A stretch of 64,000 nucleotides of DNA from a virus. How positions within the stretch are numbered: the first letter of the stretch is position 1; every line of letters starts with the position of its first letter. The notes beneath the pieces were generated by a model. It was not told the origin of the DNA and did no database searches. It saw only the letters and a program-made list of their open reading frames with translations. Shown piece after piece: positions 13,988-57,365 of this stretch. The translations under genes were made by a program, and so were the position numbers. Where the stretch lies: IMG/VR virus record IMGVR_UViG_3300042396_000723, positions 32,185 through 96,184 of that record. One strand, given 5' to 3'.

Positions 13988-14512
13988 TTAATAGCGGTTT
14001 TCCTCCTCAGTCCAACTTTGTTCAACTAAGCAATCAACAGCTAACTGAAACGAACTATGGCGGGACGTACTATACTGAAAACCTTTCCCATGCACCAGCA
14101 TCTCACCGACCGCATAAAACCAGGATTTGTACTGGACTACGAAACCCAACTTACAACCCGTCTCATAAATAACCGTCCCCTGTTGTTTGGCTAAGGAAAC
14201 AATCATTTCTTGAGTTGGTTGATTCGCGTCGATTAATTCCCGTTTTTGGGAACAGATTAGCTCCCAATAGAATGAGAACTGATCCGCACCAATTAGAATT
14301 GCGCCACCATCAGCTAACACAAATTTCAAGATGTCGTGATTGGTAAAGATACCTGTTATCTGTTCGGGCGTGGGATTGATTTGTCCGAATGTGTCCCAAG
14401 CAATGACTTGGGCAGCGATGGTCTTGTCTAGTGCTAACGCCATGATTTCCCCTGAAATCAGAGGGGCGGGCGCTGTCTGAACTTGACTTGTTTGGACGGT
14501 TGTTGCTATCAT
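13988..14512 (-). CDS. hypothetical protein
   Basis: 174 aa ORF downstream of the regulator gene; a palindrome and -10-like element lie upstream at 14590-14620. Confidence 0.35.
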   Translation of the reverse strand: MIATTVQTSQVQTAPAPLISGEIMALALDKTIAAQVIAWDTFGQINPTPEQITGIFTNHDILKFVLADGGAILIGADQFSFYWELICSQKRELIDANQPTQEMIVSLAKQQGTVIYETGCKLGFVVQYKSWFYAVGEMLVHGKGFQYSTSRHSSFQLAVDCLVEQSWTEEENRY

Positions 14513-37628: not shown

Positions 37629-37659
37629 AAAAAATTAATTTAACTACTAATATTATCCC

Positions 37660-38076
37660 GTGAATTATCGCCAAGAATTAAAACAGACCATAGAATTGTT
37701 TGTCCCTCAAGTTGAACAAGCATTTCTCAAAGCATTCTTTCTAAAAGACCTCGATTTTGGGCGGGATTTAATGGTGGGGGAGCGGACGGGTGCGATAGAT
37801 TGGTATACCTCTGACCTGGGATCTCTTGTAGGAAACGTGATGATTTCGATGGGTTGTAGCTCCCGATTAAATGCCGAGATAGAAAAAGCAACCGAGGCGA
37901 TTTATGCCAGACACGGGATATTTTCCATCAACGAGGAGGTTGTTAGAGCCATAGAGCTTTCAACCGCCAAGGTACAGCTAAAAGGGGAAGTGAATGCTAC
38001 AACAGTGCAACAAACTTCTTCTCGGCTCTGGGTAGCAATTTCCACGTTTCAAATTGACTGTTTTATTGGGTTGTGA
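37660..38076 (+). CDS. hypothetical protein (opposite-strand insert between minus-strand genes)
   Basis: 138 aa plus-strand ORF filling the gap between 37628 and 38078. Confidence 0.3.
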   Translation: MNYRQELKQTIELFVPQVEQAFLKAFFLKDLDFGRDLMVGERTGAIDWYTSDLGSLVGNVMISMGCSSRLNAEIEKATEAIYARHGIFSINEEVVRAIELSTAKVQLKGEVNATTVQQTSSRLWVAISTFQIDCFIGL

Positions 38077-38077
38077 T

Positions 38078-39682
38078 CTATTTTTTCATCCAATCAGCCA
38101 GTCCTTCTCGGTAAGTTTTAGCAAACGCATAGCATACCGCATCGGCTAAGTTAGGCGATCGCCCGATAATACGCTTAATATCATCTTTTTTGGTAATCAT
38201 TATTGTTTTCCCAGACTCCCACCACCGGAATGCACAGAGTTCTTCTTTTAATTGATCGTCGGGAGGTAAACAGATCGGGATTTGATTCTTGGGGTCTAAT
38301 AAGTCTCGCAGATTCCAGTACCAATAAGTCCGCATATTAGCAAAAGTCAAGAGTCCGCTTTTGTCTTTCAAATACTCGCCGTTTCCATCCTTCGCGGCTT
38401 CACTTCCTTTCAAGGGAATAACGTGCATTTTCATCCCTCGACAGGTATCGTGAACCGCAGCGCCCACCCCAATTACGTCAATTTGTACCTTTACCCCAAT
38501 GTTCGCCATACAGGAGGCAATCTGCTGCGCGACAATATTGCTGTCTGGGGTCTGGCTTCCATCAAATTCCCTGAGTCTATCAAGCCAGTTGTCCCATCGC
38601 AGAGCCAACACTGTCTTATCTATCCCACCCCGCGCCACATCCACACCAATATGGGACATTTTTAAGGTTTGAGGATAGTCAACCCATCGTTGCATCGCCA
38701 AAGTGACCCAATCCCCAGGAATAACTTGATAGGGGTCTGATTCTGGCTCGATGGTCATGTCGCCATAGAGAAGCTGCGATCGCAAAGGTTCAGGGAGAGA
38801 TTGCAGCACCCCTCTATATCCTGAATCTTTCAGGAAAGGATTGTCGTCTAGTGTCGCTCGAATAAATGTGCGGGATCGGGGTTCTAAGTCTTCGTCTCCA
38901 ATTCTGATCTTTTTAGGCTTGGGATAATAGAGTTTTCCCTCAACCTTTACAGGATCAAGAGAAGAAACCTCGTGGATTTCCTTGCCAATCGTGAGATAAA
39001 AGCTATCAACATCTACTTCTTGGTCTTTCCCGTTCACCCCCACAAACCAACGCAACTCACCTGGTTCGGCAAGGTGTCTTCCTGTCTGAGATTCATATTT
39101 TGGATCAAGCCAGGGAGCCAGGTAGCCGATAATCCATCGCCCACTTACTTGACTGGGAGGATTAAACGTAAAGATTACTCGGCATTTTTGATGGGGATCG
39201 GGACTTCTGCACCAACCTGTTAAAAAGAGGAATTGCTCAAGGGAGAACTCTGTCACCTCGTCTACTGCCTTGAGATCGTGTTCAATCCCTCGCCAGTTTT
39301 CAATATCACTTTCATGTTGCGCCGCACCAAACTTTAGAGTTCTCCCTCCGGGTATTTTCCTCCATAGCTTTTCGTTACTATTGTAAGTCGCCCCACTCCC
39401 CCGTAATAATAGCCGCGATTTTTCAATAATATCTAGCAGCCGAGGATACTCTCGCCGGAAAACAATTGATTTCCGGTGTTGTGTCACCGCCATAATCTGA
39501 ATGATTGCGGTTTTCCCCCCTCCAGCACTCCCCCCAAACCCAATAATGTCAGCATGGGAAGACAAAGCCATTCTTTGTGGTTCACTTTTGGGTTCCCAAG
39601 GGTTCCAGTTTGCAATACTCTGTCCAGTAAATCCTAATTTGTCTAATACAGAAGGGTAGCCACTATGTCTTTGTTTTGTCAC
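38078..39682 (-). CDS. terminase large subunit
   Basis: 534 aa; N-terminal Walker A-like GFGGSAGGGKT (ATPase) and an acidic-residue-rich C-terminal half consistent with an RNase H-like nuclease; size and position fit TerL. Confidence 0.75.
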   Translation of the reverse strand: MTKQRHSGYPSVLDKLGFTGQSIANWNPWEPKSEPQRMALSSHADIIGFGGSAGGGKTAIIQIMAVTQHRKSIVFRREYPRLLDIIEKSRLLLRGSGATYNSNEKLWRKIPGGRTLKFGAAQHESDIENWRGIEHDLKAVDEVTEFSLEQFLFLTGWCRSPDPHQKCRVIFTFNPPSQVSGRWIIGYLAPWLDPKYESQTGRHLAEPGELRWFVGVNGKDQEVDVDSFYLTIGKEIHEVSSLDPVKVEGKLYYPKPKKIRIGDEDLEPRSRTFIRATLDDNPFLKDSGYRGVLQSLPEPLRSQLLYGDMTIEPESDPYQVIPGDWVTLAMQRWVDYPQTLKMSHIGVDVARGGIDKTVLALRWDNWLDRLREFDGSQTPDSNIVAQQIASCMANIGVKVQIDVIGVGAAVHDTCRGMKMHVIPLKGSEAAKDGNGEYLKDKSGLLTFANMRTYWYWNLRDLLDPKNQIPICLPPDDQLKEELCAFRWWESGKTIMITKKDDIKRIIGRSPNLADAVCYAFAKTYREGLADWMKK

Positions 39683-39774
39683 CTATCTTCCCCGTATAAC
39701 CAATTGTGATTTTAATTTTTATCCTTCCCTTTGAAGATGGTCTAGTTGCTCTATTTAGAACAATTCTTTCCATA

Positions 39775-40434
39775 TTAAAACTCCGTAGGAACACTTACCC
39801 CAAAATTAATTAACCAGTTATATAACCTAGACCTATCCTTAACAAAATCATCGTCCAATGGTTCGTTTTCTAAGTTTTCATCCCCACCTGTTGTTTCCCC
39901 TTTGGCTAACTCCTCCGCCTGTTTTAGTCTATCATTTGCTTGTTTACATAGCTTTGCCAAATCATCTAAAGAGTAATGATTTTCAAGTCCTCCCACCTTA
40001 AATATTAAGATAGCATCCGCTATAATATCAAGGGCTAAATCTCCCGTTGTAATAAGCTCCTGGGGAAGTAATTTAGAGTCTGTCCCATCTTCGGGATACT
40101 TGTAACCCAATAATTGTTCTAGTAAACTCAATCCTGGGATTAGCTGCTCTCGATAGGTGATCGGCTCCGTTGCTATAAAAAAATGATGGCGTGATTCTTG
40201 AGTTAATTGGTCAGGATCAAACTCAAAAAAATGAGCTATTTTTAAATAATGACAACGAAACCGAGGGAAAAGGTAATCATCCATTTTCTCTGGGTAAATG
40301 TGAAGCCCTGCAATGGACTTCTTTAAATCCAAAAGATATGCAGATAGTTTCCTAGACTCTCTAATAGCCACAGGGAAAACCAAGATAAAATTCCCAGTCT
40401 GATAATTTAATCGGAAGTGCAACATTAAAGCCAC
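39775..40434 (-). CDS. hypothetical protein (possible terminase small subunit, by position only)
   Basis: 219 aa ORF immediately upstream of the large terminase; acidic C-terminus. Confidence 0.3.
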   Translation of the reverse strand: MALMLHFRLNYQTGNFILVFPVAIRESRKLSAYLLDLKKSIAGLHIYPEKMDDYLFPRFRCHYLKIAHFFEFDPDQLTQESRHHFFIATEPITYREQLIPGLSLLEQLLGYKYPEDGTDSKLLPQELITTGDLALDIIADAILIFKVGGLENHYSLDDLAKLCKQANDRLKQAEELAKGETTGGDENLENEPLDDDFVKDRSRLYNWLINFGVSVPTEF

Positions 40435-41066
40435 TCCTCCTGACTATCTTGCCAATTAACTAACTTGATTCTATTGCCAAATAATGGCTCGAATTCGCAT
40501 TGTTTTAATTCCAAATATCGCCACCTTCGATTTAGGGATTCCCCTTCCTTGAAGACAAGATGGGCATCTAGTTTTTCTATGGGTTCCTGTAGCTCTTGGG
40601 TCGCTTCACGGTAAATCACCTGCGTCCTAATTTTTACCGTTTGCCCAGAAAGATTGGGAGAAGCATAGATTTTCCCGCCTTCTTCAACCACGATTTGAGA
40701 TTGACCTGTAATCCTATCTACTAATTCTACTGTTAGAGGCGATTTATTATCGGCATTTGGGAAGTAATAAGCGATCGCCTCGCTATCTGGTTTAGGGATT
40801 TTAATATCATATTTTGAAGCATTGCCAGAGAGGGATAATTGCCCACCATTCCCCGATAACCTCGCCTCTAAGAGCGTAAAGTCCAGAAATTCAGGGGTAA
40901 CAGCCCATCGTTTTTTCCTGCGCAATGCTGCGACTAATGGATGACCAGCTAACTTTAACTCGATTTTATCTTCGTCAACCTTGACAGAAGAAGGCAACAC
41001 CAAATCAGGAGGGGTGTACAACTCGCCTCCTGACTCCTTTACCCAAGCTCGGCAAACTTTACGCAT
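40425..41066 (-). CDS. hypothetical protein
   Basis: ORF with a likely start at the internal ATG (complement near 41066); the track ORF extends to 41198 and overlaps the upstream gene. Confidence 0.35.
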   Translation of the reverse strand: MRKVCRAWVKESGGELYTPPDLVLPSSVKVDEDKIELKLAGHPLVAALRRKKRWAVTPEFLDFTLLEARLSGNGGQLSLSGNASKYDIKIPKPDSEAIAYYFPNADNKSPLTVELVDRITGQSQIVVEEGGKIYASPNLSGQTVKIRTQVIYREATQELQEPIEKLDAHLVFKEGESLNRRWRYLELKQCEFEPLFGNRIKLVNWQDSQEEWL

Positions 41067-41742
41067 TAACAGAAGCGGAGATCGCCTCCATGCTTGTAGG
41101 GTGATTTGCGAGGGTTTCAGTGCCTGTCCGTGAAACAGTAGGAGGGTTTCCCCCGTCATAAAAAACGGCTTGTGAAACCCCTGCAATATTCCGCCCACCA
41201 GAGGGGAGAATGAAGTACGTTTTTATCTCTCCTATTTTTCGCATTTTTGCGGTTCCCGATGCAGCAGTGGTTTGGGCGACAACAATATTACTAGGCGTGG
41301 TAGACCCACCTACATCGTAAGTAATTGTTACCCCAGGCAAGTCAGAAGTAAGGGTTAAAACATTGGTCGCTGCCGTTCCTGAAACCAAAGCAGATGCAGA
41401 AGGAACTCCATTAATCTCCTCTAAAAGTCTTGTTGCAATTGTGGTCGCAGTATCACCTGACCTTTGGGTGTGGGAGACAATAGCCGAGTTACCCCCGGCA
41501 GTGATTCCTATTAGGTAGTCATCCCCTGTACTCCCTGCTGTGATGGTCATGGTATTCACTTGAGACACCGCGCCACCAAAATCTGCCCAGGCTTCTAACA
41601 CATCCTTTACCACCCCCCCTTCAGTAATTTGTGTCCGTACCCTTTTAAAAGGGATTGTTACCGTCAGGTCGGGTTGGGATGCAGGATAACTAATTGAGCC
41701 AATTGAAGAAGTCATTTGTTTTGAGTAATAACTTATTAACAA
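41059..41742 (-). CDS. hypothetical protein, Thr/Ser/Gly-rich
   Basis: 227 aa ORF, first gene of the leftward late operon. Confidence 0.35.
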   Translation of the reverse strand: MLISYYSKQMTSSIGSISYPASQPDLTVTIPFKRVRTQITEGGVVKDVLEAWADFGGAVSQVNTMTITAGSTGDDYLIGITAGGNSAIVSHTQRSGDTATTIATRLLEEINGVPSASALVSGTAATNVLTLTSDLPGVTITYDVGGSTTPSNIVVAQTTAASGTAKMRKIGEIKTYFILPSGGRNIAGVSQAVFYDGGNPPTVSRTGTETLANHPTSMEAISASVNA

Positions 41743-41813
41743 TATTATAATTATAATTATGCCTTAAACTCAAAGATAATTCCGCAAAAAAATACCAATA
41801 ACTTTATATAAAA

Positions 41814-43802
41814 ATGACCGCCCAATCATCCGAGACAACAAAAAAAGAAACCACCACAGAGATTGTGAATCGTTATAGAGAAGACTCTCGCGTCATGATG
41901 CAAGCGTTAGCGGAGAGTGCCGACGCAAGTTCGATGCGAAATCCTCTCCCTGTAACGGGAAGAATCCAGCCTTTCTCTCAACAGCAAGTAGAAAACTGTT
42001 TAGCAGACGCGATCTTAAAACGAATTGCATGGAGCCTTCCATCTTCGTCAACCCAAAAGATGTGGCAGTTATCCTTGGGGGATGACTTCTCTAGTAAGAC
42101 GGGTTCTAAATTAGTCCGAGATTATTATGCCTATCACGAAAGATTGAAAACCATATCACAATTTAGAAAAGCATTGCAGTTCTCTCGCTCTCATGGTGGG
42201 ACAGTTATTATTCTCAAGATTAACGATGGAAGACATTATTCCGAACCTGTTGATGAAGGCAAGATTAAATCAATCTCTGGGTTAATCGTTCGTCACCGAT
42301 GGCAAGTTGCTCCTTCGGTGAGAACGGCTGCTAGTATATTTGACCTTGATGACATTGAACATTATGAAATCCTAACAATTGACCAACAAATAAAACAAAA
42401 ATTACTATTTAACGGAACAAATTCCAAGCAGGATGATCGCCTGATTCATCGGTCAAGAATCCTCCGGTTTAATGGGGCATTAATGCCTGATGATTGGATG
42501 ATTTCCTATAACAATGGATGGGGATTGAGTGTCTTTGACGAGGTTTGGAAATATTATAAAAACTATACGAATGGACTCAATGCAGTAGGCGAATTAATTA
42601 AAACCCAATCAGTTCTACAGCATTCTTTTGAAGGACTGCGGGAACTGATGATGGCATCTGATGAAGAAAGTATCGCAGCTATTAAGCAAACCATGAAATC
42701 AATCCGACTAATGTTTGATCTATATGGCATGGTTCTCCACGACTCCCGTGAACAATTCAACTGGAATGCCCGCCCCGTCGTCGGGATGGATTCACTCGTG
42801 CAAGTACAGAAGGATGGGGTAACAGGAGCCTCTGGGATGCCTCACACGATAGTTTGGGGAGAAAGCCCTGGGGGTTTGGGGCGTGATGGCAAGGAGACCC
42901 AAATCAACTATGCTAACTCGGTGGCAGAGTACCAAGGAGAGAGCTTAGATCCTAGCGCAGCTATTCTTGATCGTTATATCTTCTTGGCTAAAGACGGCCC
43001 CACAAAAGGCAAAATCCCCGACAACTACCAGAGGCAGTACCCTTCTATCTTGAGGATGACCATCGAGGATCTCCGCTCTGGACGCTCATCTGATATTCAG
43101 GCATTGGCTTCAGGTATTCAAGCCGGATTCATCACGACAGATGAAGCTCGGACAGTGCCTTCTAACTCCGGTTGGTGGCCAGAGCTTAATCTTGATCAAA
43201 AAGCATGGGAAGAAGCCAGGAAAAAAGCAGAAGAACAAGCAAACTCCCTTGGTGGTTTTGATATGGGAGCATTAGGAGGAGAGGAAGTTGCCCCACCCAC
43301 TGAAGAACCCGTCGAAGAAGAATCTATAACTCAAATGGACAGTGCTGTTTACACCCCAATAAAGCGGGTTCTTAATTGGCACGGGCTATCAATTGGGGTC
43401 ACTCACGATAAAGGGGATCTTCGCTATAACAAAACGATGAAGGTAGGGTATGGGCATATTAGACGCAGCTATGGACACGCGGAGGACGCAAAAGCAATCG
43501 ACGTTTATATCAAAAATCCAAACTCACCTAGTCTCTGGAAGGTTCGGCAACTCAACACAACAACAGGGGAGATTGACGAAACAAAGTATTTCTTGGGTTT
43601 TGATTCCCCCAAAGAAGTGCGCGATTGCTATTACTATCATGCCGGATTAGATCGTTTTGGAGGAGTGGAGAAGTGCGATCCTACGGAATTAAACCAATAT
43701 CGCCAAGATGCAGAAGAATTGGAGGGAGTTAATGAAGTTTATCAAAATAAGATATTAACAGATGTAGCAAATAGAATCAATCAACAAACTCAATTAGATT
43801 AA
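41814..43802 (+). CDS. portal protein candidate
   Basis: 662 aa, first gene of the rightward head operon, divergent from the terminase operon; size and position fit a portal. No motif confirmed. Confidence 0.4.
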   Translation: MTAQSSETTKKETTTEIVNRYREDSRVMMQALAESADASSMRNPLPVTGRIQPFSQQQVENCLADAILKRIAWSLPSSSTQKMWQLSLGDDFSSKTGSKLVRDYYAYHERLKTISQFRKALQFSRSHGGTVIILKINDGRHYSEPVDEGKIKSISGLIVRHRWQVAPSVRTAASIFDLDDIEHYEILTIDQQIKQKLLFNGTNSKQDDRLIHRSRILRFNGALMPDDWMISYNNGWGLSVFDEVWKYYKNYTNGLNAVGELIKTQSVLQHSFEGLRELMMASDEESIAAIKQTMKSIRLMFDLYGMVLHDSREQFNWNARPVVGMDSLVQVQKDGVTGASGMPHTIVWGESPGGLGRDGKETQINYANSVAEYQGESLDPSAAILDRYIFLAKDGPTKGKIPDNYQRQYPSILRMTIEDLRSGRSSDIQALASGIQAGFITTDEARTVPSNSGWWPELNLDQKAWEEARKKAEEQANSLGGFDMGALGGEEVAPPTEEPVEEESITQMDSAVYTPIKRVLNWHGLSIGVTHDKGDLRYNKTMKVGYGHIRRSYGHAEDAKAIDVYIKNPNSPSLWKVRQLNTTTGEIDETKYFLGFDSPKEVRDCYYYHAGLDRFGGVEKCDPTELNQYRQDAEELEGVNEVYQNKILTDVANRINQQTQLD

Positions 43803-44047
43803 TTTTAAATTAATTGGTTTTTGAATGCAACTTAGTCAGCCCATTTTATTTCACTAGGGTTGGCTAAGTTGTCTAAACTGTTACATCAAATCTTTGTCAG
43901 TTCCTGATTTACGGGCTACGTAAATCTATGTATAGGTTAAGGTAGTTTGGCAACAATTGGCACTTCGGACAGTAAGGACACCCCAGACCCACTGCAACGG
44001 TCTGTCTCCCGCCTATTCACCAAGAAATCAATACAATAAAAAAGGTG

Positions 44048-44072
44048 TGATTTTCTTATATAGAAATTATTT
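44048..44072 (+). promoter_or_regulatory. conserved 25-bp element GATTTTCTTATATAGAAATTATTTT, copy 1
   Basis: Exact 25-bp identity with 51066-51090; lies 75 bp upstream of the ATG at 44147; contains a TATATAG core. Confidence 0.4.
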
Positions 44073-44146
44073 TATAAAGTCCCGTTGATCTATAAGAATT
44101 TAACCTTAAAATTATAGTAATAACTTCTGATCAGAAGGGTTTTATC

Positions 44147-44539
44147 ATGCCAATTCCTGTTAGTTTTTTCAAGATTACAAGAGCCGGAAAGGATTACGCC
44201 TTCAAGCCCGAAGACATCTCGTTTGGGGACGACGACACTCTTGAGGTTAAATTAAATCAAGGGGGAGATATAGCGGTCATCCCTCTTGTAAAAAAATCCG
44301 TGACATTAACAATTCAGGGTGCTGTTGACACTGATCTTGATACGTTTGAAACCGAGAGAACCCAAAATGTCCAAAACTTAATTGACAATCAGCCGGTTGG
44401 CGCAAACATGGCTTTTGCAAACTATATTATTTACAGTGCTTACTTGCGAAAAGTAACCCCCACTGCCCCAATTACCGTGTCAGGGAAGACCTTGTTTGAC
44501 ACAATTGAGTTAGAGTTTGCCTCTCGCGTTTACGTTTAA
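44147..44539 (+). CDS. hypothetical protein
   Basis: 130 aa ORF downstream of the conserved 25-bp element. Confidence 0.35.
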   Translation: MPIPVSFFKITRAGKDYAFKPEDISFGDDDTLEVKLNQGGDIAVIPLVKKSVTLTIQGAVDTDLDTFETERTQNVQNLIDNQPVGANMAFANYIIYSAYLRKVTPTAPITVSGKTLFDTIELEFASRVYV

Positions 44540-44589
44540 ATTTATACTGCCTAAGCCAATCAAGGTTTAGGTAGTAGCCCCTAAAATCT

Positions 44590-45555
44590 ATGTATAAAAA
44601 GATGACACCAACAGAAACTTCAGTAAAATTAGCGATTGCACAAGTCTTGTCAATGCCTTCTGTTTTTAACGCACCTCTTTACGTCTTGGATTTTAACATT
44701 GACGAAAAAGGGACGGTATCAGGAAGGTTTAGAGATGCTGCTAGACCCCGTGTATTTAGCTATGAGATTGCAGACGATGGAATAACCTTTAGTCCCTTTG
44801 TCCCTGGAAGAATGGATAGCAGTGACTGGAAAGTAGAAGACTGGGAGAAGTTTTCAGATGGCTATTCGTTTAGGATTGACGCAGGGATGCAAAAACGAAC
44901 CGACAAGCCAAAATGTAATCCGGCTGTTTCTTTTTCTTGTGGAAAGGCTTGTGTTAGTTTAAAAAAGAAATGCAAAACAGATCCTCAAGATCCGACTTCT
45001 GTAGCCAAGAAAGAAAAATTAAAAGCTGTTATTAAAGAGGTTACAGTTACCGACAAGACGAGCAAAATTAAAGTCAGTAAGGATAAATCTAGTAAGCCCA
45101 AAGCCAATAAATTGATCAATGACCTAGAACCCTTAGAGCCATTAAACACCTCTCGGACACCCACTGAAACCGTGTTACCTGAGCTAAGTTCTAACAATGT
45201 TGTTAAGGGTCTTGGTGGTAAAGTGGGCAGAGGAAAATATTCAGGCGATGCGGGTAGGGATTTTGAAGATACTGGCAAGATGATGAACTACCCACTAAAA
45301 AGCGTTGTAGCCACAAAGGACATGAAAGGGAAGGAAAAAGAAGTGGCAGACGTAGCAAAAATGTTGAAAGAATCCGAGAGAAATTGGCTCCCTGTTTATG
45401 TCAAAGAAGTTAGACCTTACGAGTATGAAGTTGTCGGAAATCATTTGACCCATGCAGCAGCAATAAAAGCAGGGTTTGAGAGGATTTGGACTATTCCGGT
45501 TGATTCAGATCCGGCTACTCTCAAACAGATTCAAATGTTAACAAACGGTAATTAA
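44590..45555 (+). CDS. modular family member A: conserved N-domain, 4-Cys linker, ParB/Srx-like C-terminus (tentative)
   Basis: N-domain (KLAIAQVLSMP...GRFRDAARPRVFSYEI...GYSFRIDA) and KPKCNPAVSFSCGKACVSLKKKCKTDPQD shared with the paralogs; C-terminus LPVYVKEV...YEVVGNHLTHAAAIKAGFERIWTIPV resembles ParB-like domains. Confidence 0.5.
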   Translation: MYKKMTPTETSVKLAIAQVLSMPSVFNAPLYVLDFNIDEKGTVSGRFRDAARPRVFSYEIADDGITFSPFVPGRMDSSDWKVEDWEKFSDGYSFRIDAGMQKRTDKPKCNPAVSFSCGKACVSLKKKCKTDPQDPTSVAKKEKLKAVIKEVTVTDKTSKIKVSKDKSSKPKANKLINDLEPLEPLNTSRTPTETVLPELSSNNVVKGLGGKVGRGKYSGDAGRDFEDTGKMMNYPLKSVVATKDMKGKEKEVADVAKMLKESERNWLPVYVKEVRPYEYEVVGNHLTHAAAIKAGFERIWTIPVDSDPATLKQIQMLTNGN

Positions 45556-45596
45556 TTCCTGTGTTTATTTTACAATCTTATAAATTAAGATTTGAT

Positions 45597-45672
45597 GCTC
45601 CGCCAACAGAAATCCAGGCGAAATTAGCGATCGCCAAAGTACATCTCAATATTGGTAGAAGTGAACTTAATT
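45597..45672 (+). pseudogene. decayed remnant of the family N-domain start
   Basis: One frame reads APPTEIQAKLAIAKVHLNIGRSELN then stop, matching the paralog N-domain opening (APTExQMKLxIAQxLSM...) but truncated. Confidence 0.35.
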
Positions 45673-45723
45673 AAGCAAAAACAAAGTACAATAGACTCAT
45701 CGCATTAAAAAGGAAAATCAATC

Positions 45724-45948
45724 ATGAAAGCTAAAAAAACTGCTGTTGAAGGACAGAAGAAAATTAAAACCGTTCCCCCTGCTGTTGTAGATGAAGATGA
45801 GGATGTTTTAGGGGAAGGGGAGACATTGCAGGAATTTGACAAGAGAATGGAGAAAAAATATCCGAAAAGAAGTTATGACGATTTGACAGAAGAAGAAAAA
45901 CGCGAACGTGCCAAACGTTTTGTAGCTCAAGGGCCGGAAGACTGGTAA
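45724..45948 (+). CDS. hypothetical small charged protein
   Basis: 74 aa, Lys/Glu-rich, between family members A and B. Confidence 0.3.
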   Translation: MKAKKTAVEGQKKIKTVPPAVVDEDEDVLGEGETLQEFDKRMEKKYPKRSYDDLTEEEKRERAKRFVAQGPEDW

Positions 45949-45997
45949 ACTCCCCAGCCCGCACCCGTACAAAAAAATTTAGTTTATCTCAAAAACA

Positions 45998-48900
45998 ATG
46001 GTCACAACCTTAAACCGTCAAAATCCCCGTCGCCTTGATGCTGCTCCTACGGAAGTGCAGATGAAACTTGGTATTTCTCAAGTTTTGTCGATGCCATTTG
46101 CCTACAACTCTCCGGTTATCGTTCTGGATTTTGAAGTAGGCAATAAAAACATCATCAAGGGACGGTTTAAGGATGCCATTAGATCCCGTGTTTTTGAGTT
46201 TGAGATTGGGGATTCTATCACGTTCAAGCCGTTCACCTGGAGGCGAACGGATAGCGACGTTGACCCGATGGCATGGGAAGACTTCTCTAAAGGGTATTGC
46301 TACCGATTCGATGCAGTCAAGACCGTCAGAAAGGAAAAACCTAAGTGTGGCAATACTTCTTATAACTGCGGTAAAGCCTGCATTGGCTTAAACAAGAATT
46401 GCAAATCAGATCCCCCCGATAAACCGTCCCAGGAGAAAGTTGATAAACTCAGAGCCGCGGCAGGGGAGTTTAAAGCTGTTCAGGGCGATCCAACCAAGAA
46501 GCAAGAGGATAATAAGTTAACGCCAAAACCACAGGAAGTTAAGGAAGTCGCGCCCACCCCCTCTCCCGATAAAGCAGAAGTCCCTGTCACCGACCTTGCT
46601 AAACAGCCACCTGTTGCCTTAAAAATTGGTAAAAAATCAGTCAACCTAAAAGACGACCTTGATTCCTACAAAGATTTAAGAATAACCGCCGATCCCGTTT
46701 TAGGTTGGCAAGTTATCAATAAGAATGGGAACGTACTGAGAGAACCGCCCAAGGGCAACACGGCTCCAAGTCATAGATTCAAGAAAAGAGAGCAGGCTGA
46801 AAAGTTTGCTAACGATGTGATGACACGGGTTGAGAAGTTGCAGAAGGCTCAACCAAAACCGGATGCTGATGTAAGTGACTCTGATAAAAGGTCATTTGAA
46901 AGTCTTTACACCACAAAATTATCATCCGCCCAACAGTTGCTTAACTTAGAAAAAAACGCAAAAATAGCGCGAATATCTCCCAGTGAAGATCAAAAAAATT
47001 ATGACAAAAAACAACCCGACCTCAATATTGATTCGGGGCCAGGAATAATGGAAGGTTGGAGGACTGCGAAACCAGACGGATCTGTCCAGGGAATCCCTTG
47101 GTCTGTCAAGGCGGAGGGTCAAGAAAAGTCACGGGCTATCGTGGGTGCTAGATTAACGGATCATCCAGCCAGCCCTAATTTAAAAAGACTCAGGTTATAC
47201 GACGCAGACGGACGTAATGAGACAATTGACTTCAAAAAGGGTGATAGAAACGCATCTCTTAGGGCTAGAAGACTTGTTAGAGAAATCGCACAAGGAAAGT
47301 CTCAAGAGATGGAATCTGGCGACATAAAAGCGTTGATTGAGGGAGGTAAAGAGGGTTTAGCTAAAAGAAAAGTGGAAAAGGCAAGATTAGCTGCTGAAGA
47401 CAAGCAATTTAAAGCAGCCTTAGATGATTATTTAAAATCAAAAAACCTAACAAGAGAAAGCATTAAAGGTTTGACCGATATCGGAATGGACGATCTTATC
47501 GAAAAAGTTGAGAAATACCAGAAATCACGATCTCAAACCCCCAATTCAGCAGGGGATAAGGGTGCGGGGGGTAAAACGTTTGACCTAAATGATTTATGGC
47601 GACAAACCGCCGACGCTGCTTATTCTAAAAACAAAGATGGTGTCTCAAAAAATCTTGAGCAATGGAAGGAAGTTGTAAAAAAATTAGAGTCAGGAGAAGG
47701 GATCTCTAAAGACGTTAACTTAAACGAATACGAAAAGTTAATGGATAATTTAGAAAAAAAATTAGTCCTCGATCCCAAAGATCCGTCTAATGTTGAATTT
47801 AAAAAGATTACGGGATCTATTTCTAAGATTCTTAGTAAAGCAGGCAGTCTCAACCCGTTAACACAAGAAGACCTAGAAAAAGCTCACCCTAACTTTAGAC
47901 CAATCATGCAACGAATTAATAAAACCGTTGCTAAGGATTATGAATTATTTGACAAAAAAGAGCGAGTTCAAAAAGAGTTAAATAGCCTAAAACAAGAAAA
48001 ATCTTATAACGAGGCTGTGATATTAAATAATTCAAAACGATTCCGAGAAATAGGTATTAATAATAACGAGGTAGAAATTCAAAGACTTTCCAAGAAAAAA
48101 CCGAGCGATTCAGTTGAGGTTAGAAATCCTGTCTCAAATTTACCAGAAAGGACTATTTCGGCATCCAAACGGATTAAGGAACTTCAAGATGAAATTGGGG
48201 AATTGAATAATAGTGAAAAAGCTAAAATAGAAGAAGACAGGGCTAGAAAAGAAATAGCCCGATTGCAAAGCCCAATGAAGGATGCAGAGAGTAGAATAAA
48301 CGCCATTTTAGACGAGAAGAAAAAATTAAGGGAATCTCGCGGCGGATCTAGTTCACAATCAGAACCCAAGCAAACCCCAAATTCAGTAGGGGTTGATGGT
48401 GCGGGGGGTAAATCAGTTGATCAACAATATAAGGATATAATTGCTAAGTCGAAAGATCCAAAGGGAACAGAGGAAGTTTTATCGTCAGCATTAAGAGGTG
48501 GGTTTGGTGACTTTGAAAGAAAAAATTATAACGAATATTCAACCGCTATAAAATCTGGGACTGTTCCAAAAGGAATGGGGAACTATTATCAAAAACAAGT
48601 CGACAAATATAAACCCATTATTGAGGCGGAAGATTTTATTAACGAAAGGAAGAAAAAAGCAATTAGTGGAGACTATGAAACAGAACAAGAAGCTGGGGTT
48701 TATGTTCTTAATAAATTAAAGCAAAAAGGCTACAAAGAACACGAATATTATGACAGTCCAGACTATGAAAAAGATTATGGAAAATTGGTGGGGGTAATGA
48801 AATCTGTTAAACTTCCTCCGCCGTTGTCTGGTATCGTCCCCGGTAAAGAATTAAAACAGACATTAACTCCGGGTGACAAACTACTTGTTAAAGAGGATAC

Positions 48901-49282
48901 TTATTCGTTAATGAGTAGTGGAAATACCCCTACTGGCTATCGAATAGTTGATGGTGGCGAAGTTTTAAAGGTTAATGTCAAGAATGTTAAAACCCGCGTT
49001 AGAGGCGAATACATGGGGAAACCCTACGAGAACGAGCCGTCTCTCGCTCTTGATAAAGTTACCCACGTCATCCGAGATGGTAAACGTTACAAGGTAGATG
49101 ATTCTGATAGATCCCCCAATGACTTAAAGTCGGAATCCTCCAAATCCCAGAAAGCAGTAAAACAAAAGGCAGTAAAACAGAAAGCAATAAAAGTTCAAGG
49201 GGAGCGATCGCAAAAACAAGAATCCCCTCTAATTCCGAAAGAGGAAATAGTTAAAGATGCTCCAATACTGATGTTAAGGTAA
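45998..49282 (+). CDS. modular family member B: N-domain, 4-Cys linker, long Lys/Glu-rich helical C-terminal region
   Basis: 1094 aa; N-domain and KPKCGNTSYNCGKACIGLNKNCKSDPPD shared with paralogs; C-terminal region has internal repeats (SAGDKGAGGKTFD / SVGVDGAGGKSVD; QKAVKQKAVKQKAIK). Confidence 0.5.
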   Translation: MVTTLNRQNPRRLDAAPTEVQMKLGISQVLSMPFAYNSPVIVLDFEVGNKNIIKGRFKDAIRSRVFEFEIGDSITFKPFTWRRTDSDVDPMAWEDFSKGYCYRFDAVKTVRKEKPKCGNTSYNCGKACIGLNKNCKSDPPDKPSQEKVDKLRAAAGEFKAVQGDPTKKQEDNKLTPKPQEVKEVAPTPSPDKAEVPVTDLAKQPPVALKIGKKSVNLKDDLDSYKDLRITADPVLGWQVINKNGNVLREPPKGNTAPSHRFKKREQAEKFANDVMTRVEKLQKAQPKPDADVSDSDKRSFESLYTTKLSSAQQLLNLEKNAKIARISPSEDQKNYDKKQPDLNIDSGPGIMEGWRTAKPDGSVQGIPWSVKAEGQEKSRAIVGARLTDHPASPNLKRLRLYDADGRNETIDFKKGDRNASLRARRLVREIAQGKSQEMESGDIKALIEGGKEGLAKRKVEKARLAAEDKQFKAALDDYLKSKNLTRESIKGLTDIGMDDLIEKVEKYQKSRSQTPNSAGDKGAGGKTFDLNDLWRQTADAAYSKNKDGVSKNLEQWKEVVKKLESGEGISKDVNLNEYEKLMDNLEKKLVLDPKDPSNVEFKKITGSISKILSKAGSLNPLTQEDLEKAHPNFRPIMQRINKTVAKDYELFDKKERVQKELNSLKQEKSYNEAVILNNSKRFREIGINNNEVEIQRLSKKKPSDSVEVRNPVSNLPERTISASKRIKELQDEIGELNNSEKAKIEEDRARKEIARLQSPMKDAESRINAILDEKKKLRESRGGSSSQSEPKQTPNSVGVDGAGGKSVDQQYKDIIAKSKDPKGTEEVLSSALRGGFGDFERKNYNEYSTAIKSGTVPKGMGNYYQKQVDKYKPIIEAEDFINERKKKAISGDYETEQEAGVYVLNKLKQKGYKEHEYYDSPDYEKDYGKLVGVMKSVKLPPPLSGIVPGKELKQTLTPGDKLLVKEDTYSLMSSGNTPTGYRIVDGGEVLKVNVKNVKTRVRGEYMGKPYENEPSLALDKVTHVIRDGKRYKVDDSDRSPNDLKSESSKSQKAVKQKAVKQKAIKVQGERSQKQESPLIPKEEIVKDAPILMLR

Positions 49283-49457
49283 CAGATAGAGATGGAATTA
49301 TTCTTGTGGAAGCCGAAGAAGTATAGAAAATTAACAATAAATTAGTGGTTTTGCTTCTGTTTTGCCCAAAATAAAACTGTTATAATTAATAATAACAAAC
49401 GCCTCTCGCGGTGCGCTAACACCCAGAGGCAGTAGATCCTATCCAAGAGGAACCACA

Positions 49458-50186
49458 ATGACTAATTTATCATTATTACCTGACGATATTCGTTCTGAAT
49501 TTTCCGTTAACGATCAAGGTCAGGCTTTTGCGAGTAGACGGGCGATCGCACGGTTGGCAGGCGTTTCTCATGTGTCCATCGGGAATCTATTGGATAAAAT
49601 CGCTGTTAACCTAGACCTCCCCGAAAGCATTGAAATCCTTGGAGGGCAGGACTTTGAGGGTGTTAACCTGATCCCTGATACCGTTGCCTCCCGGATTATT
49701 GAGTATTACGCTTTTGATGCTAAACGTTATTGCACAGAACAAGCCAAGCGAGTTTATAAAGCATTCGGGGCTATCGGGTTTCGGTCGTGGGTACAAACTG
49801 AATTAGGTTGGCAATATTCACAACCTAAGTTACCTCAGACTTATGCTGAGGCATTACTGGAGGCGGGACGGTTAGCGTTAGAAGTGGAGAAGTTGGAAGC
49901 CGAGAAAACATTGCTTGAGCAAGAGAATGGCGAACTCTCCAAAAATTTAGATGAGTTATTTGATTATTCCTCTATTGTTCGGATTGCCAAGTTTAACCAA
50001 ATCTCAGAGAAAATCTTTAACTGGCGGTTACTCAAGGCATTGAGTCTTAAAATGGGGTTAGAAATTAAAAAAGTCCCGTGTCCCAGGTTTGAGACAAAAA
50101 GCCTATATTCTCACGATGTCTGGCGTGTTGCTTATCCTGAAATGAAGCTACCAGAAACGACAACGCTAGTTATTAACAGAGGATAA
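49458..50186 (+). CDS. antirepressor-like protein, paralogous in its C-domain to the Rha-family gene at 26576-27265
   Basis: C-terminus PQTYAEALLEAGRLALEVEKLEAEK...YSHDVWRVAYPEMKLPETTTL is near-identical in pattern to 26576-27265; the N-terminal domain is different. Confidence 0.5.
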   Translation: MTNLSLLPDDIRSEFSVNDQGQAFASRRAIARLAGVSHVSIGNLLDKIAVNLDLPESIEILGGQDFEGVNLIPDTVASRIIEYYAFDAKRYCTEQAKRVYKAFGAIGFRSWVQTELGWQYSQPKLPQTYAEALLEAGRLALEVEKLEAEKTLLEQENGELSKNLDELFDYSSIVRIAKFNQISEKIFNWRLLKALSLKMGLEIKKVPCPRFETKSLYSHDVWRVAYPEMKLPETTTLVINRG

Positions 50187-50262
50187 CCAAAACAGTAGGA
50201 GGGATGCGTTAAAACATCCTTTCTCTGTACTAAGATCGGGGTATATCCTACTTTTTAACCCC

Positions 50263-50682
50263 ATGCTATCCCTAAGATTTAACGCCAATCAAGTCCGAAA
50301 TTATCTAAATAAATTAATTAAAAAGTTTCAGAATCTTAACCCCGAACTGCATAAAGTTGGGCAGTTTATGGTGGCATCAACCGATGAGAACTTCCAAAAG
50401 GAACAGAGTCCTTATGGGGAGAAATGGGAACACTTAGCACCATCAACCCTCAAATACAAGGCAAGTCGGGGTTTTATTATGCAAATATTACAACGCCAAG
50501 GATTGTTGCGATCTTCTATTCGGTATCGGATTGAAAAAGGAAGGGTTGAGGTAGGGAGTCCATTGCCCTATGCCTCCTATTTACAAGAAGGCACTAAGAA
50601 AATGCCTAAACGTCAATTTTTAGGAGTAAGTCAACGCGATCGCAGGGAGATTATCGCTATTCTAAAGGATTCTCTTCGTTGA
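50263..50682 (+). CDS. virion morphogenesis protein candidate (Mu G-like)
   Basis: 139 aa; C-terminal LPYASYLQEGTKKMPKRQFLG resembles the Mu gpG-type signature; located in the head module. Confidence 0.4.
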   Translation: MLSLRFNANQVRNYLNKLIKKFQNLNPELHKVGQFMVASTDENFQKEQSPYGEKWEHLAPSTLKYKASRGFIMQILQRQGLLRSSIRYRIEKGRVEVGSPLPYASYLQEGTKKMPKRQFLGVSQRDRREIIAILKDSLR

Positions 50683-51031
50683 TCTCGACGAGTTTATCAA
50701 TAAGACCTGGGTTGATTTCTTGAGGGATTTCTTGCTCAATAATCTTTAAAGTTTCCTTAGTCCAAGCAAGGATCAATCGTTCTGCCTCCGATTGATCCTC
50801 AGAAATTAACGAAGCGATAATCAATAGTTCTACGAAATCCGTCCGTCGCTCCCCCATTAAAATCCGTCGAATTGTCTGCCAATCCCATCCACTTTTTTCA
50901 CTAAATTCCATCATCCCAAAATTTGCATTTATAAGATCCCGTCGAATTGACCGACCAAGAGCGCGATAGGGAGCCAACGCACCAGATCCTAGTGTCTTCT
51001 TAGAAGGATACTCTCTTTTGATAGTAGTCAT
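50657..51031 (-). CDS. HTH-containing small protein, antisense insert in the head module
   Basis: 124 aa minus-strand ORF converging on the previous gene; segment FSEKSGWDWQTIRRILMGERRTD resembles an HTH. Confidence 0.35.
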   Translation of the reverse strand: MTTIKREYPSKKTLGSGALAPYRALGRSIRRDLINANFGMMEFSEKSGWDWQTIRRILMGERRTDFVELLIIASLISEDQSEAERLILAWTKETLKIIEQEIPQEINPGLIDKLVEINEENPLE

Positions 51032-51065
51032 TATTTATATCTAAATCATTGGTTTAATTTTAGTC

Positions 51066-51090
51066 GATTTTCTTATATAGAAATTATTTT
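51066..51090 (+). promoter_or_regulatory. conserved 25-bp element GATTTTCTTATATAGAAATTATTTT, copy 2
   Basis: Exact repeat of 44048-44072; lies 71 bp upstream of the ATG at 51161. Confidence 0.4.
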
Positions 51091-51160
51091 TTTACACCAT
51101 CTTTAAATGACTGATAAGGTGCGTTATTCTTTAACAAGAATTATTTTTTTGTATTGAGAA

Positions 51161-52675
51161 ATGGTTGAAATCAGGCTTGATGCTCCAGCTAAATTTAGGG
51201 TAATCAGAACTGATGATGGTCGCCTCCATTGTGAGGGGTCTTTTTGTCGTGATGGGGTGTTGGAATATCGTCAGCCTGATGGCTCCATAGTCCACGAACT
51301 CAGGAGACCGGAAACCAATGCAGAACTAGCCACAGTGGAGAGTTTTAAGCTCCTCCCCCTGGTAATTGAACATCCCCATGTTGGGCTTCTTAATAGCGAA
51401 AGTTATAAGGATTACGCAGTCGGGATGACTGATTCTTCTGCTTATTACAACAAGGCTGAAGGGGTGATCGAAGGCTTGGTGTCGTTTTTTGATGCTAAAG
51501 CGATCGCCCTAATTGATTCAAGGGAAAAGGAACAGTTGTCTGCGGGATATACCTGCGATATCAAACAAGGGGCAGGGGTATGGAATGGTCAACACTACGA
51601 CAGAGAACAGATTAATGTTCGTGCTAACCATTTGGCTTTAACGAGCCGAGGAAGGGCAGGAGAAGATGCCCGTCTCCGATTAGATAGTGCTGCGGGGATT
51701 GGGCAAGCTGTTGCAGGGCAAGCTGTTGAAAACCCTAGTAACCCCAACAAAACCAAAGATAATGGAGATAATGAACAGCGCATGGCAATAATTAGATGCG
51801 ATGGAGTCGAATATTCAGGAATCCCTGAAGTTTTCGCTTCTATTAGTGGTACTCGATTCCGTGAATTAAAAGAATTAAAGGAACGCCACGATTCGCTTGT
51901 TACACGGTTTGACGCTACGATTCGGGAGAATCGGAAGCTAGAAGCCGCACAAGAGAACTACCAGTTTCGGTTGGATAACCTGGAAATCATTGTGGACAAT
52001 GCTGACAATGTCCTTGGTGAATTAGGTTATTACCGGAACGACATGGGGCAATACGTCCGTGTTGATGGGGGCAAAAAGAAAATGATGTCTCTTGTTCCCG
52101 AAGATGAAGAAATGATGGAAGATGAGGACAATGAAGATGAAGAAATGATGGAAGATGAGGTTATGGAAGAAAAAGAAACCATGACTTCCAGAAAGAAAAA
52201 AAAGTCCAAACCTCGTGCTGATGGCGACGATGAAGGCGAGAGTGATTACCGGGGTGATTCAATCGGGGATCTGTTGGCGATTTGGAAGGAAGCCGACAGT
52301 TTGTTACCAGGGTTCTCTGACACTCGGTTTGATAGTGGCTTCTCCACTAGCGATATCAAGCGCACTTTGTTGGCTGAAATCGAACCCAATATGGATTTGA
52401 CGTTCCGATCCGATTCTTATGTAGACGGGGTTTTTGCCTACATTCAGGAGAATTATGATTCCTCCCCCACCGATCCAGGTGACGAAGAAGAAGGGGATGA
52501 CGAGGAGGAAGACGATGGAGACTCGGAGGAGTTTTCCCATCGCCTTGATTCGGTACTCAAAAGACCTGCTCAATCTACCTACGGAGATGAACTCACCGAA
52601 TGGGAAAGACGACGGGTAGATGCCTATAAGCAGCCTTTAACGATAGGAAAAACACGCACGGGGTTTACTAGATAA
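51161..52675 (+). CDS. capsid scaffolding / head maturation protein candidate
   Basis: 504 aa; acidic low-complexity C-terminal half (MMEDEDNEDEEMMEDEVMEE, DEEEGDDEEEDDGD) typical of scaffolding proteins; lies immediately upstream of capsid-like genes. Confidence 0.4.
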   Translation: MVEIRLDAPAKFRVIRTDDGRLHCEGSFCRDGVLEYRQPDGSIVHELRRPETNAELATVESFKLLPLVIEHPHVGLLNSESYKDYAVGMTDSSAYYNKAEGVIEGLVSFFDAKAIALIDSREKEQLSAGYTCDIKQGAGVWNGQHYDREQINVRANHLALTSRGRAGEDARLRLDSAAGIGQAVAGQAVENPSNPNKTKDNGDNEQRMAIIRCDGVEYSGIPEVFASISGTRFRELKELKERHDSLVTRFDATIRENRKLEAAQENYQFRLDNLEIIVDNADNVLGELGYYRNDMGQYVRVDGGKKKMMSLVPEDEEMMEDEDNEDEEMMEDEVMEEKETMTSRKKKKSKPRADGDDEGESDYRGDSIGDLLAIWKEADSLLPGFSDTRFDSGFSTSDIKRTLLAEIEPNMDLTFRSDSYVDGVFAYIQENYDSSPTDPGDEEEGDDEEEDDGDSEEFSHRLDSVLKRPAQSTYGDELTEWERRRVDAYKQPLTIGKTRTGFTR

Positions 52676-55940: not shown

Positions 55941-57365
55941 ATGCTGAAATCAAAACCAAGTTCTTTGTATCGGGTTGATGAAGATGAAGTAGCAATGGGA
56001 AGTGGTGGGAGAGGAACTGCACCAACCGAAGCCCAAATGAAGCTATTTATTGCCCAAACTTTGTCAATGAACTTCGCCTATAACGCCCCAGTTGTTGTGC
56101 TTAAATTTGATGTTGCCGAGAATGGGAATATTGCCGGATTATTTAAAGATGCGGCACGTCCACGGATGTTTTCCTTTACCTTAGACGGGGAGTCCGTAAC
56201 TTATAAGCCTTACAAACCTGGTAAAATGGACAGCTTGGAATCAGACGAGGATGTCCAAGAATGGGAGGCATTTTCAGAGGGGTACGGGTTCCGCGTAGAT
56301 GCGGGGGTAGGGGGCAAAAAAAAGCCTCAATGCGTTAAGCCCACCGCTTACAATTGTGGGAGTGCCTGTATTAATGTGATGAAGGACTGTAAGACTAACG
56401 CCAAAGATGCAGTTTCTAAGGATAGGCTTAAAAAGTTGAAAGGTGTGGCGATGTCTTATTACAAGGAATTTGAGAAACTTGATAAGACAGAAAGAGGCAG
56501 TGACAAACAGAAGGGATTTGGCGACAAATCAAATCAAGCTAGTCGGAAAAGAGTTGAATTGATGGAGCAATCCAAAAGCAAAAAGGGGGTAAAGTCGGAC
56601 GAACCCCAGATCAAGCCCAAGGCAGAAAGTAAAAAGCCTTCTACTCAAAAATTATCAACACAGAAAACGGTAGAACCCGAAGTTAAAACCAAGCCAAACG
56701 TAGAACCTAAAAAGACGGAATCCAAGCCAAAGTCCAAAGCCAATCCCTTTTATAGTGACGAACCAATTAAGGATTATGAGACTTTTAAAAAGGAAATACC
56801 AAAAGAACTGGCTAGGTTTAATTTTGAATACAATATGGACGGGTTGATCCCTATTCCAAGAATGAGAGAGGAATTAAAAGGGAGAGTAAAAGCAGAGGAC
56901 TTTGATAAGTGGATGCTACAGTCTCAAGCCGATAATGATAATATTCGACTTAGTGAAGGGCAAAAGAAAATGCCAGGGGGGATAAAAACCGAACTAGGAA
57001 ACCACAGGGATAACATTCGATTTTTTGACAAAGAGGCTATGGAAAAAGCTAGGACTGAAACGAAAAGAAAACCCGGTCAAATAATAGATCCAAAAGAATT
57101 TGAAGACGTGGCAATGAAGTCCTTAACCGATCTTGATAAGGACGGGAAATATGGCAATCTCATCCCTATTCATGAACTCAGAAAAACCCTTGGCGACAAA
57201 GTAAGTCGAGGGGATTTCAATAATTTATTGATGGAAATGCAGGCAAATGACAAGGTTCAATTAATTGGGGGTCAAATGACAGATGCCACCCCAAAAAAAG
57301 TGGAGGACTCTGTTGTATCAGAGCTGGGGGCATATCGTTATTACGTTAAAATCCTCAAGGATTAA
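55941..57365 (+). CDS. modular family member C: N-domain, 4-Cys linker, duplicated C-terminal domain
   Basis: 474 aa; KPQCVKPTAYNCGSACINVMKDCKTNAKD; the C-terminus carries two related ~45-aa units (GLIPIPRMREELKGRVKAEDFDKWMLQSQADNDNIRL / GNLIPIHELRKTLGDKVSRGDFNNLLMEMQANDKVQL). Confidence 0.5.
   Translation: MLKSKPSSLYRVDEDEVAMGSGGRGTAPTEAQMKLFIAQTLSMNFAYNAPVVVLKFDVAENGNIAGLFKDAARPRMFSFTLDGESVTYKPYKPGKMDSLESDEDVQEWEAFSEGYGFRVDAGVGGKKKPQCVKPTAYNCGSACINVMKDCKTNAKDAVSKDRLKKLKGVAMSYYKEFEKLDKTERGSDKQKGFGDKSNQASRKRVELMEQSKSKKGVKSDEPQIKPKAESKKPSTQKLSTQKTVEPEVKTKPNVEPKKTESKPKSKANPFYSDEPIKDYETFKKEIPKELARFNFEYNMDGLIPIPRMREELKGRVKAEDFDKWMLQSQADNDNIRLSEGQKKMPGGIKTELGNHRDNIRFFDKEAMEKARTETKRKPGQIIDPKEFEDVAMKSLTDLDKDGKYGNLIPIHELRKTLGDKVSRGDFNNLLMEMQANDKVQLIGGQMTDATPKKVEDSVVSELGAYRYYVKILKD

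Follow-up and report, generated by a model that had tools for sequence, protein, structure and literature searches.

What does an exactly repeated 25-bp sequence do in front of two operons of viral head genes? The question is raised by a 64,000-nucleotide (nt) stretch of DNA (IMG/VR record IMGVR_UViG_3300042396_000723, positions 32,185 to 96,184; here called the window) that resembles Planktothrix phage PaV-LD (NC_016564, 95.3 kb). Positions 43000-52000 of the window matched PaV-LD at ~96% identity over 75% of their length and the remainder was mosaic, and the head module was Mu-like according to the PaV-LD annotation and family scans. We analyzed the repeat, its neighboring genes and its relatives by comparison of sequences and predicted structures. 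The analysis indicated that the element is probably the operator of a phage-encoded dimeric XRE-family helix-turn-helix (HTH) regulator, and that the binder is most probably the 124-amino acid (aa) protein encoded on the minus strand beside the second copy (Table 1).

The 25-mer, GATTTTCTTATATAGAAATTATTTT, was found twice in the window, both times on the plus strand (copies A and B). The first-pass annotation had reported the two exact copies with correct coordinates for the second, while the first was off by one nucleotide (44048-44072 for what is really 44049-44073). No further copy was detected in the window with up to six mismatches, and 100 shuffles gave zero matches to the 25-mer even with up to three mismatches. 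The 25-mer is also the longest dispersed exact repeat of the window, and on these grounds a chance origin was rejected. The edges of the repeat are sharp and the flanks of A and B are unrelated. The genome-wide motif search that had been proposed as a check returned two copies only, in the window and likewise in the whole PaV-LD genome, where they lie at orthologous places. Copy A is located inside the 344-bp gap that separates the portal gene from the gene for a 130-aa protein (p130), 246 nt past the portal stop codon, and copy B inside the 129-bp divergent gap between the regulator gene (minus strand) and the protease/scaffold gene (plus strand). The end of the repeat is 73 nt from the next ATG at copy A (44147) and 70 nt at copy B (51161); the near-equal spacing described earlier was therefore real, although the range of 71-75 bp given for it was not exact. 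Family scans identified the two downstream genes as encoding a PHROG 35535 protein and a DUF2213 protease/scaffold, in agreement with their earlier assignment to the head module.

The core of the element is the inverted repeat TTTCT-N5-AGAAA, with half-site centers 10 bp apart, followed by TTATTTT. When the 64 kb was searched for this inverted repeat with up to one arm mismatch, copies A and B were the only intergenic sites. A third exact TTTCT-N5-AGAAA at 6097-6111 (GATTTTCTTAatcAGAAAT) lies inside a 268-aa minus-strand open reading frame (ORF) and was treated as chance. The shorter core CTTATATAGA, which had been put forward as a further occurrence at 16299-16308 in the origin region, is present there, but as a 10-mer with up to one mismatch it gave 5 matches against 4.2 expected. 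This site has no TTTCT/AGAAA arms and stands beside unrelated iteron-like repeats, so that we attribute it to chance as well.

Close relatives were of little use for judging constraint on the element. All 16 IMG/VR contigs with the exact core were PaV-LD-like and their intergenic regions were nearly invariant, and the comparison of the window with PaV-LD itself was set aside, since flanks that are 98-99% identical are uninformative. Scans of IMG/VR with degenerate DNA patterns gave mostly unrelated chance matches, the relevant ones being PaV-LD-like contigs only. A second PaV-LD lineage (lineage 2) had an identical A-to-G change at position 10 in both A and B (three contigs with both copies), and the flanks of its two copies differ independently. 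The distant loci were retrieved via their proteins rather than via the motif, which makes the test non-circular. Among six loci encoding homologs 33-53% identical to the 124-aa protein (P0004, P0005, P0007, P0008, L087 and L210), the order of a G-like (Phage_tail_S) gene, the regulator gene and a divergent DUF2213 protease gene was kept in 6 of 6 where the contig reaches the flanking genes. A palindrome was present in the regulator/protease gap at all six regulator loci; P0006 has the same gene layout and was not among the six scored for the palindrome. The homolog loci with DNA were L087/L125, L126, L127, L128, L129 and L210.

The distant sites allowed us to separate the conserved from the variable parts of the element. 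The gap palindrome reads cATTTTCTCTCAGAGAAATTACTTTT in L087 and TTTCTCTCAGAGcAA in L126, while the gap of L127 holds two perfect palindromes 29 bp apart, TTTCTCT-A-AGAGAAA and TTTCTCT-T-AGAGAAA. At position A, L220 has tATTTTCTCTCAGAGAAACTATTTC and L033 has GATTTTCTCTTAGAGAAACTATCTTTT, the latter overlapping the stop codon of the Mu-F-like gene. Over 10 site variants the invariant columns were the arms TTTCT and AG.AA, with TATAT, TGTAT, CTTAG or CTCAG at the center. The arms are more conserved than the center and the half-sites lie about one helical turn apart, as in an operator. These data also bear on the proposal that the 25-mer is itself a late promoter, which they do not support: the element has no conserved -35 or -10 inside, its symmetric arms are retained but its center differs from one lineage to another, another palindrome takes both positions in one subgroup, and sigma-70-like hexamers are found downstream instead. 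As a sigma-70 core promoter the element was rejected because the 25-mer contains no -35/-10 pair with a 16-18 nt spacer, and as a -10 because TATATA/TATAGA is lost in L033, L087 and L220.

The type of site was found to follow the type of regulator. Regulators with the recognition helix W-x-W-Q-T pair with TTTCTCTnAGAGAAA-type sites (subgroup I), and those whose recognition helix starts with W-D/G-I/Y-Q/E-T (subgroup II; P0007 and P0008) pair with GTCTTATAT...ATATAAGAC sites, their gap palindrome being GTCTTATATTGAT-A-ATCAATATAAGAC. L210, 20 kb taken from an 81.8-kb Logan contig, encodes a regulator of subgroup II and has the subgroup-II palindrome exactly twice in these 20 kb, at 9908-9934 (position A, upstream of the p130 gene) and at 14076-14102 (position B); shuffled sequence gave zero matches. 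Between the two intergenic regions of L210 the best 25-nt window was identical at 21 of 25 positions, against a null maximum of 18. The presence of this palindrome at both positions indicates that A and B switch operator type jointly and in step with the regulator subgroup. Judged from these sequences, A varies together with B, and both vary with the regulator; co-occurrence or co-variation with the regulator was seen in L087, L126-L129 and L210. The idea of a binding site for a phage-encoded factor, raised in the first-pass annotation, is thus backed by comparison across lineages, with the product of the adjacent XRE-type gene as candidate factor.

Spacing is constant as well. The sequences between element and start codon are unrelated among lineages, yet the distance from the repeat center to the downstream ATG was 85-89 nt in subgroup I and 80-90 nt in 3 of 4 subgroup-II contexts, the exception being L128 with 117 nt. 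On the other side, most lineages have ~43-48 nt between the center and the regulator ATG (45 nt in the window, 18 nt in the exceptional L087).

We then characterized the 124-aa protein, which is ORF070L in PaV-LD. Its PHROG matches to repressors and regulators were weak (E-value ~9e-4), a sequence search of the Protein Data Bank (PDB) gave nothing, and a word-index search for homologs returned near-identical proteins only. An exhaustive phmmer search of 1.8 billion representatives detected five orphan relatives that were 39-48% identical, together with two classical XRE proteins, P0009 and P0010 (E-values of 4e-4 and 6e-4). P0009 matched HTH_3 at an E-value of 6e-25, and both proteins have a G-x-RR-x-D-x-VEL segment in common with the 124-aa protein. 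The orphan sequence family of the regulator comprised 7 cluster representatives among the 1.8 billion proteins, with weak Pfam HTH_3 matches in just 2 of the 7 members (best E-value 0.006). An AlphaFold2 (AF2) model built from the family alignment had a predicted local distance difference test score (pLDDT) >90 over roughly residues 20-100 and contained helices at 16-35, 40-47, 51-58, 66-76 and 80-101, a five-helix bundle in which helices 2 and 3 make up the HTH. When the model was compared with the PDB by Foldseek, the top matches were all XRE-family proteins (C.BclI, C.AhdI and C.Esp1396I, then ClgR, HigA and SinR), with target-normalized template modeling (TM) scores of 0.72-0.82 and root-mean-square deviations of 2.1-2.5 Å. 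By its modeled fold, the protein is a divergent XRE-type HTH DNA-binding protein. The Mor family of Pfam had no match in the 124-aa protein and its six homologs, to which the scan for Mor was confined. In L207 (IMGVR 3300027805_000054, positions 9539-9868), where the protease is 31-37% identical, another small gene of HTH_19/HTH_31-like type occupies the same divergent position, which suggests that the regulator slot upstream of the protease gene is ancient.

Candidate promoters were sought around the sites. In seven subgroup-I contexts the best sigma-70-like candidate placed the -35 at +26/27 and a -10 of the form TAnnnT at +48-50, counted from the center. The predicted -10 of the protease/capsid operon reads TATTAT in L007-type relatives, and its geometry is that seen at copy A. 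Toward the regulator gene, a candidate -10 begins 14-18 nt from the center in 6 of 8 contexts, as TAAAAT at +14 to +18 in the window, lineage 2, L126 and L127 and as TACAAT at +18 in L129 and L210. From this arrangement a scheme can be proposed in which a dimeric regulator would recognize TTTCT-N5-AGAAA, and in which the oriented A/T-rich flank (AGAAAyTAyyTTTT) would probably add to promoter function. Copy B would lie ~26-30 nt upstream of the regulator's predicted transcription start, over its core promoter, a position suited to autoregulation and probably to autorepression. The start predicted for the protease/scaffold/capsid operon would be ~60 nt downstream of the same copy, and a repeat near -60 of the rightward starts would take a position like that of a class-I activator. 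Copy A would control the p130-to-G operon with the same geometry. Because A and B share this geometry, one factor may couple two head-morphogenesis operons to its own level. That the rightward operons are activated from the class-I-like position is our preferred guess, and we put it forward tentatively.

Several observations weigh against an operator bound by the 124-aa protein. Pfam gave no match for this protein, which did not reach the gathering thresholds of HTH_3, HTH_31 or HTH_19, and its placement in the XRE family draws on weak sequence links and a predicted fold. The promoter hexamers are weak consensus matches that were no commoner than in shuffled sequence, and no consistent promoter geometry was seen at subgroup-II sites. 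The concerted change in lineage 2 could reflect gene conversion instead of co-evolution with the protein; as the substitution falls in the spacer and the recognition helix is unaltered, gene conversion may contribute to the identity of A and B. No common A/B element above the null was detected in the distant L211 and L221/L222, which have larger HTH proteins in the same position. Finally, the number of effectively independent lineages is small, with two operator types and one substitution.

Other explanations of the element were weighed on the same data. Host RNA polymerase might read it directly, as a cis-acting promoter component (a UP-element-like A/T tract or upstream region) that works without a phage factor, and this is an unlikely alternative. 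The element is A/T-rich, has the same orientation at A and B, sits at a fixed distance directly upstream of -35-like hexamers and has conserved asymmetric flanks besides the arms. Its 3' half AAATTATTTT also resembles the UP-element sequence, the consensus being the one reportedly given by Estrem et al. However, the invariant positions are the symmetric arms and not the T-tract, and at both sites subgroup II has a G/C-containing 27-bp palindrome of unrelated sequence. Co-variation with the recognition helix of an adjacent HTH protein is not what a UP element would lead one to expect, and the exact motif is missing from representative host genomes. In representative bacterial genomes the exact motif was found only in a mis-binned phage contig and as chance matches, none of them in Planktothrix. 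The contig in question (L214/L216; JBIPLY010000606.1, 48,966 bp) is PaV-LD-like, has both copies and was placed in an 'Acetobacteraceae' metagenome-assembled genome from Lake Mendota, probably through a binning error. When representative genomes were scanned with proteins, no relatives were detected, and a host or prophage origin was rejected.

A palindrome implies merely some dimeric binder, and the region encodes further DNA-binding candidates. A host regulator, or a phage protein such as the Ant/KilA-like 242-aa product, could accordingly be the one that binds, with the XRE protein unrelated to the element. We consider this distinctly unlikely because the 242-aa gene is missing from minimal relatives with the paired sites or the gene order (L210 and L211), whereas the XRE gene always adjoins site B and its subgroup follows the operator type, as no other gene does.

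The direct repeats might also serve mainly as recombination substrates or module boundaries for the mosaic exchange of a 7-10 kb segment, any regulation being secondary. Direct-repeat recombination would remove p130, the G-like gene and the regulator, there is no adjacent recombinase, and the PaV-LD breakpoints lie inside the segment and not at the repeats. The palindromic core and the fixed distance to the start codon would be left unexplained, and as the main function recombination is very unlikely. The observations that speak for it are the mosaic hot spot that the A-to-B segment forms against PaV-LD, its reduction to p130 plus G alone in L211, the concerted evolution of both copies, and the homology of L033 to the window, which resumes exactly at copy A's left edge. 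Because of the hot spot and the L033 homology edge, the cassette coincides with a module boundary too. A weak intrinsic terminator or RNA hairpin ending upstream transcripts by a stem-loop and U-tract is hardly credible, for although a 5-6 bp stem is followed by TTATTTT and the element comes directly after the Mu-F-like stop codon in L033, L210 and L220, the hairpin has just -1.8 to -4.2 kcal/mol with z-scores near 0, a terminator scan was empty at both sites, no co-directional gene ends upstream of copy B, subgroup-II palindromes have no U-tract, and the constant distance is to the downstream ATG and not to upstream stop codons. Rfam, at gathering thresholds, detected no known RNA in the window.

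The operator and its candidate XRE-type regulator were compared with known systems. The controller (C) proteins of restriction-modification systems, C.AhdI, C.BclI and C.Esp1396I, gave the best structural matches to the modeled 124-aa protein. C proteins, which are small XRE-fold HTH dimers, bind palindromic operators immediately 5' of their own gene and act as concentration-dependent activator/repressor timers, and the tandem palindromes 29 bp apart in L127 are reminiscent of paired C-boxes. Unlike in the C-protein systems, no restriction or methylase genes are controlled here, the neighbors are a Mu-G-like gene and a DUF2213 protease gene, another operon 7 kb away has a second operator, and the predicted targets are virion head genes. 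The 124-aa protein has 15-20% sequence identity to C proteins, and its operator is unrelated to the C-box consensus.

With phage Mu the window shares the order of the head module (portal, Mu-F, Mu-G (Phage_tail_S), protease/scaffold, capsid). The Mu late activator C binds dyad-symmetric sites at late promoters, notably at P_I upstream of the protease/scaffold gene I. As with the Mu C sites, a symmetric site is found here just 5' of a weak -35 before the protease gene and is repeated at another late operon. In contrast, Mu C is a Mor/C-family protein with its gene in the middle operon, whereas the candidate described here is XRE-type, lies in the head module and is divergently transcribed; there are two sites here against four in Mu, and activation is in our case a guess only. 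The lambdoid CI and Cro proteins likewise have an XRE-fold HTH, a palindromic operator in a divergent intergenic region and autoregulation, which is predicted for the present candidate, and in those phages a single occupied site can activate one promoter while repressing the one opposite. The arrangement differs from CI/Cro in its location outside an immunity region, in its single site per region in place of a tripartite operator, and in the structural genes that it would control.

Regulator-operator pairs of this type are textbook. What is new is an orphan XRE subfamily, its placement in a Mu-like head module, and the paired operators at two head operons in an ecologically important group of cyanophages. 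Among the viruses known from the toxic bloom-former Planktothrix agardhii, PaV-LD-like phages are the main ones, and to our knowledge nothing is known of the timing of gene expression or of lytic/latent switching in these phages. In field data, phage DNA was high and phage transcription low (PMC10343443). The Sandusky Bay paper contains no promoter information. If the proposed pairing is true, two 25-bp sites and one 124-aa protein would offer a testable handle on virion gene expression and parts for engineering cyanophages or cyanobacterial expression systems, and the operator specificity of the orphan subfamily could be read from natural co-variation. A broader and decidedly speculative possibility is that the XRE regulator, lying antisense within the long rightward virion transcript, and the two operators, held identical through concerted evolution, form a self-contained timing switch for head assembly, as a cassette that marks the boundaries of hypervariable cargo. 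Early leftward expression of the regulator would then set the state of the two head operons, late rightward read-through from copy A over the G/regulator overlap would shut the regulator off, and the cargo region would be swapped between PaV-LD-like phages of bloom-forming Planktothrix.

Table 1. Coordinates of the repeat, the predicted promoters and neighboring features in the window.
Feature	Position	Strand	Remarks
Portal	41814-43802		
Copy A	44049..44073	+	inverted-repeat core TTTCT-TATAT-AGAAA 44052-44066, center 44059
Predicted sigma-70-like promoter, p130-to-G operon	44085..44112	+	TTGATC, 16-nt spacer, TAAAAT; -35 begins 26 nt past center; prediction
130-aa protein (p130), PHROG 35535	44147..44539	+	first gene 3' of copy A
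Recurrent ~125-aa domain	44590-44979, 46046-46408, 56022-56396, 57482-57880, 61971-62342	+	
Recurrent ~125-aa domain, partial matches	59444, 60550, 63523		
Ant/KilA-like 242-aa product	49458-50186		
Mu-G-like Phage_tail_S gene	50263-50682	+	
124-aa XRE-family HTH protein, candidate binder	50657..51031	-	PHROG, phmmer, AF2 + Foldseek
Predicted -10 of the regulator's leftward promoter	51057..51062	-	TAAAAT; begins 14 nt from center; prediction
Copy B	51066..51090	+	inverted-repeat core 51069-51083, center 51076
Predicted sigma-70-like promoter, protease/capsid operon	51102..51130	+	TTTAAA, 17-nt spacer, TATTCT; prediction
DUF2213/Pa193_gp24 head maturation protease/scaffold, 504 aa	51161..52675	+	first gene 3' of copy B

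The genes around the two copies were inspected as well. The 130-aa gene is followed by variable 'minor head protein'-like genes, the Ant/KilA-like gene and then the Mu-G-like gene, and downstream of the protease/scaffold gene come an XM1-gp53-like protein and the major capsid protein. The segment from A to B measures 7.0 kb in the window (44074-51065) against 9.7 kb in PaV-LD (37528-47255), which has an extra KilA-like gene and a second large gene there, and ~3.8 kb in lineage 2. The annotated start of PaV-LD ORF058R, a GTG 30 nt upstream of 44147, is ATA in the window (44117-44147), and the corresponding upstream GTG of L033 opens a different reading frame that meets a stop codon. For these reasons the ATG at 44147 is likely the true start of the 130-aa gene and of ORF058R. 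The Mu-G-like gene and the regulator gene converge and share 26 nt at their 3' ends (50657-50682). This overlap is kept in those relatives whose contigs include the G-like gene (L126, L127, L128 and L210), and late transcription proceeding rightward would cross the regulator gene in antisense.

Further palindromes were noted in the leaders of the two downstream genes. TAACTTCTGATCAG (44121..44134, plus strand) forms a further conserved island within the 130-aa gene's leader, just 5' of its ribosome-binding site; it belongs to the perfect palindrome CTTCTGATCAGAAG (44124-44137), GATC included, and is retained in L033 and L220, which have otherwise diverged. The protease-gene leader has the palindrome ATTCTT-TAAC-AAGAAT at 51126-51141, which is longer in lineage 2 (ATTCTTT-AA-AAAGAAT). 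In the L007 type a C-to-A change disrupts this palindrome and gives rise to TATTAT at the predicted -10. Considered as candidate elements, these secondary TTCT..AGAA palindromes at 44124-44137 and 51126-51141, close to the start codons, were rejected, being not consistently conserved.

Two further kinds of repeat in the window were also observed. At least five plus-strand ORFs of the virion module have in common, at or close to their N-terminus, a domain of ~125 aa (43-52% identical, E-values of 1e-36 to 1e-40); it corresponds to the PHROG 16619 region and may be a shared anchor or targeting module. The 'origin' region contains, at 16205-16295, about five iteron-like direct repeats AATCCCAATTTAC(C) followed by CAGAAAAGACT repeats.

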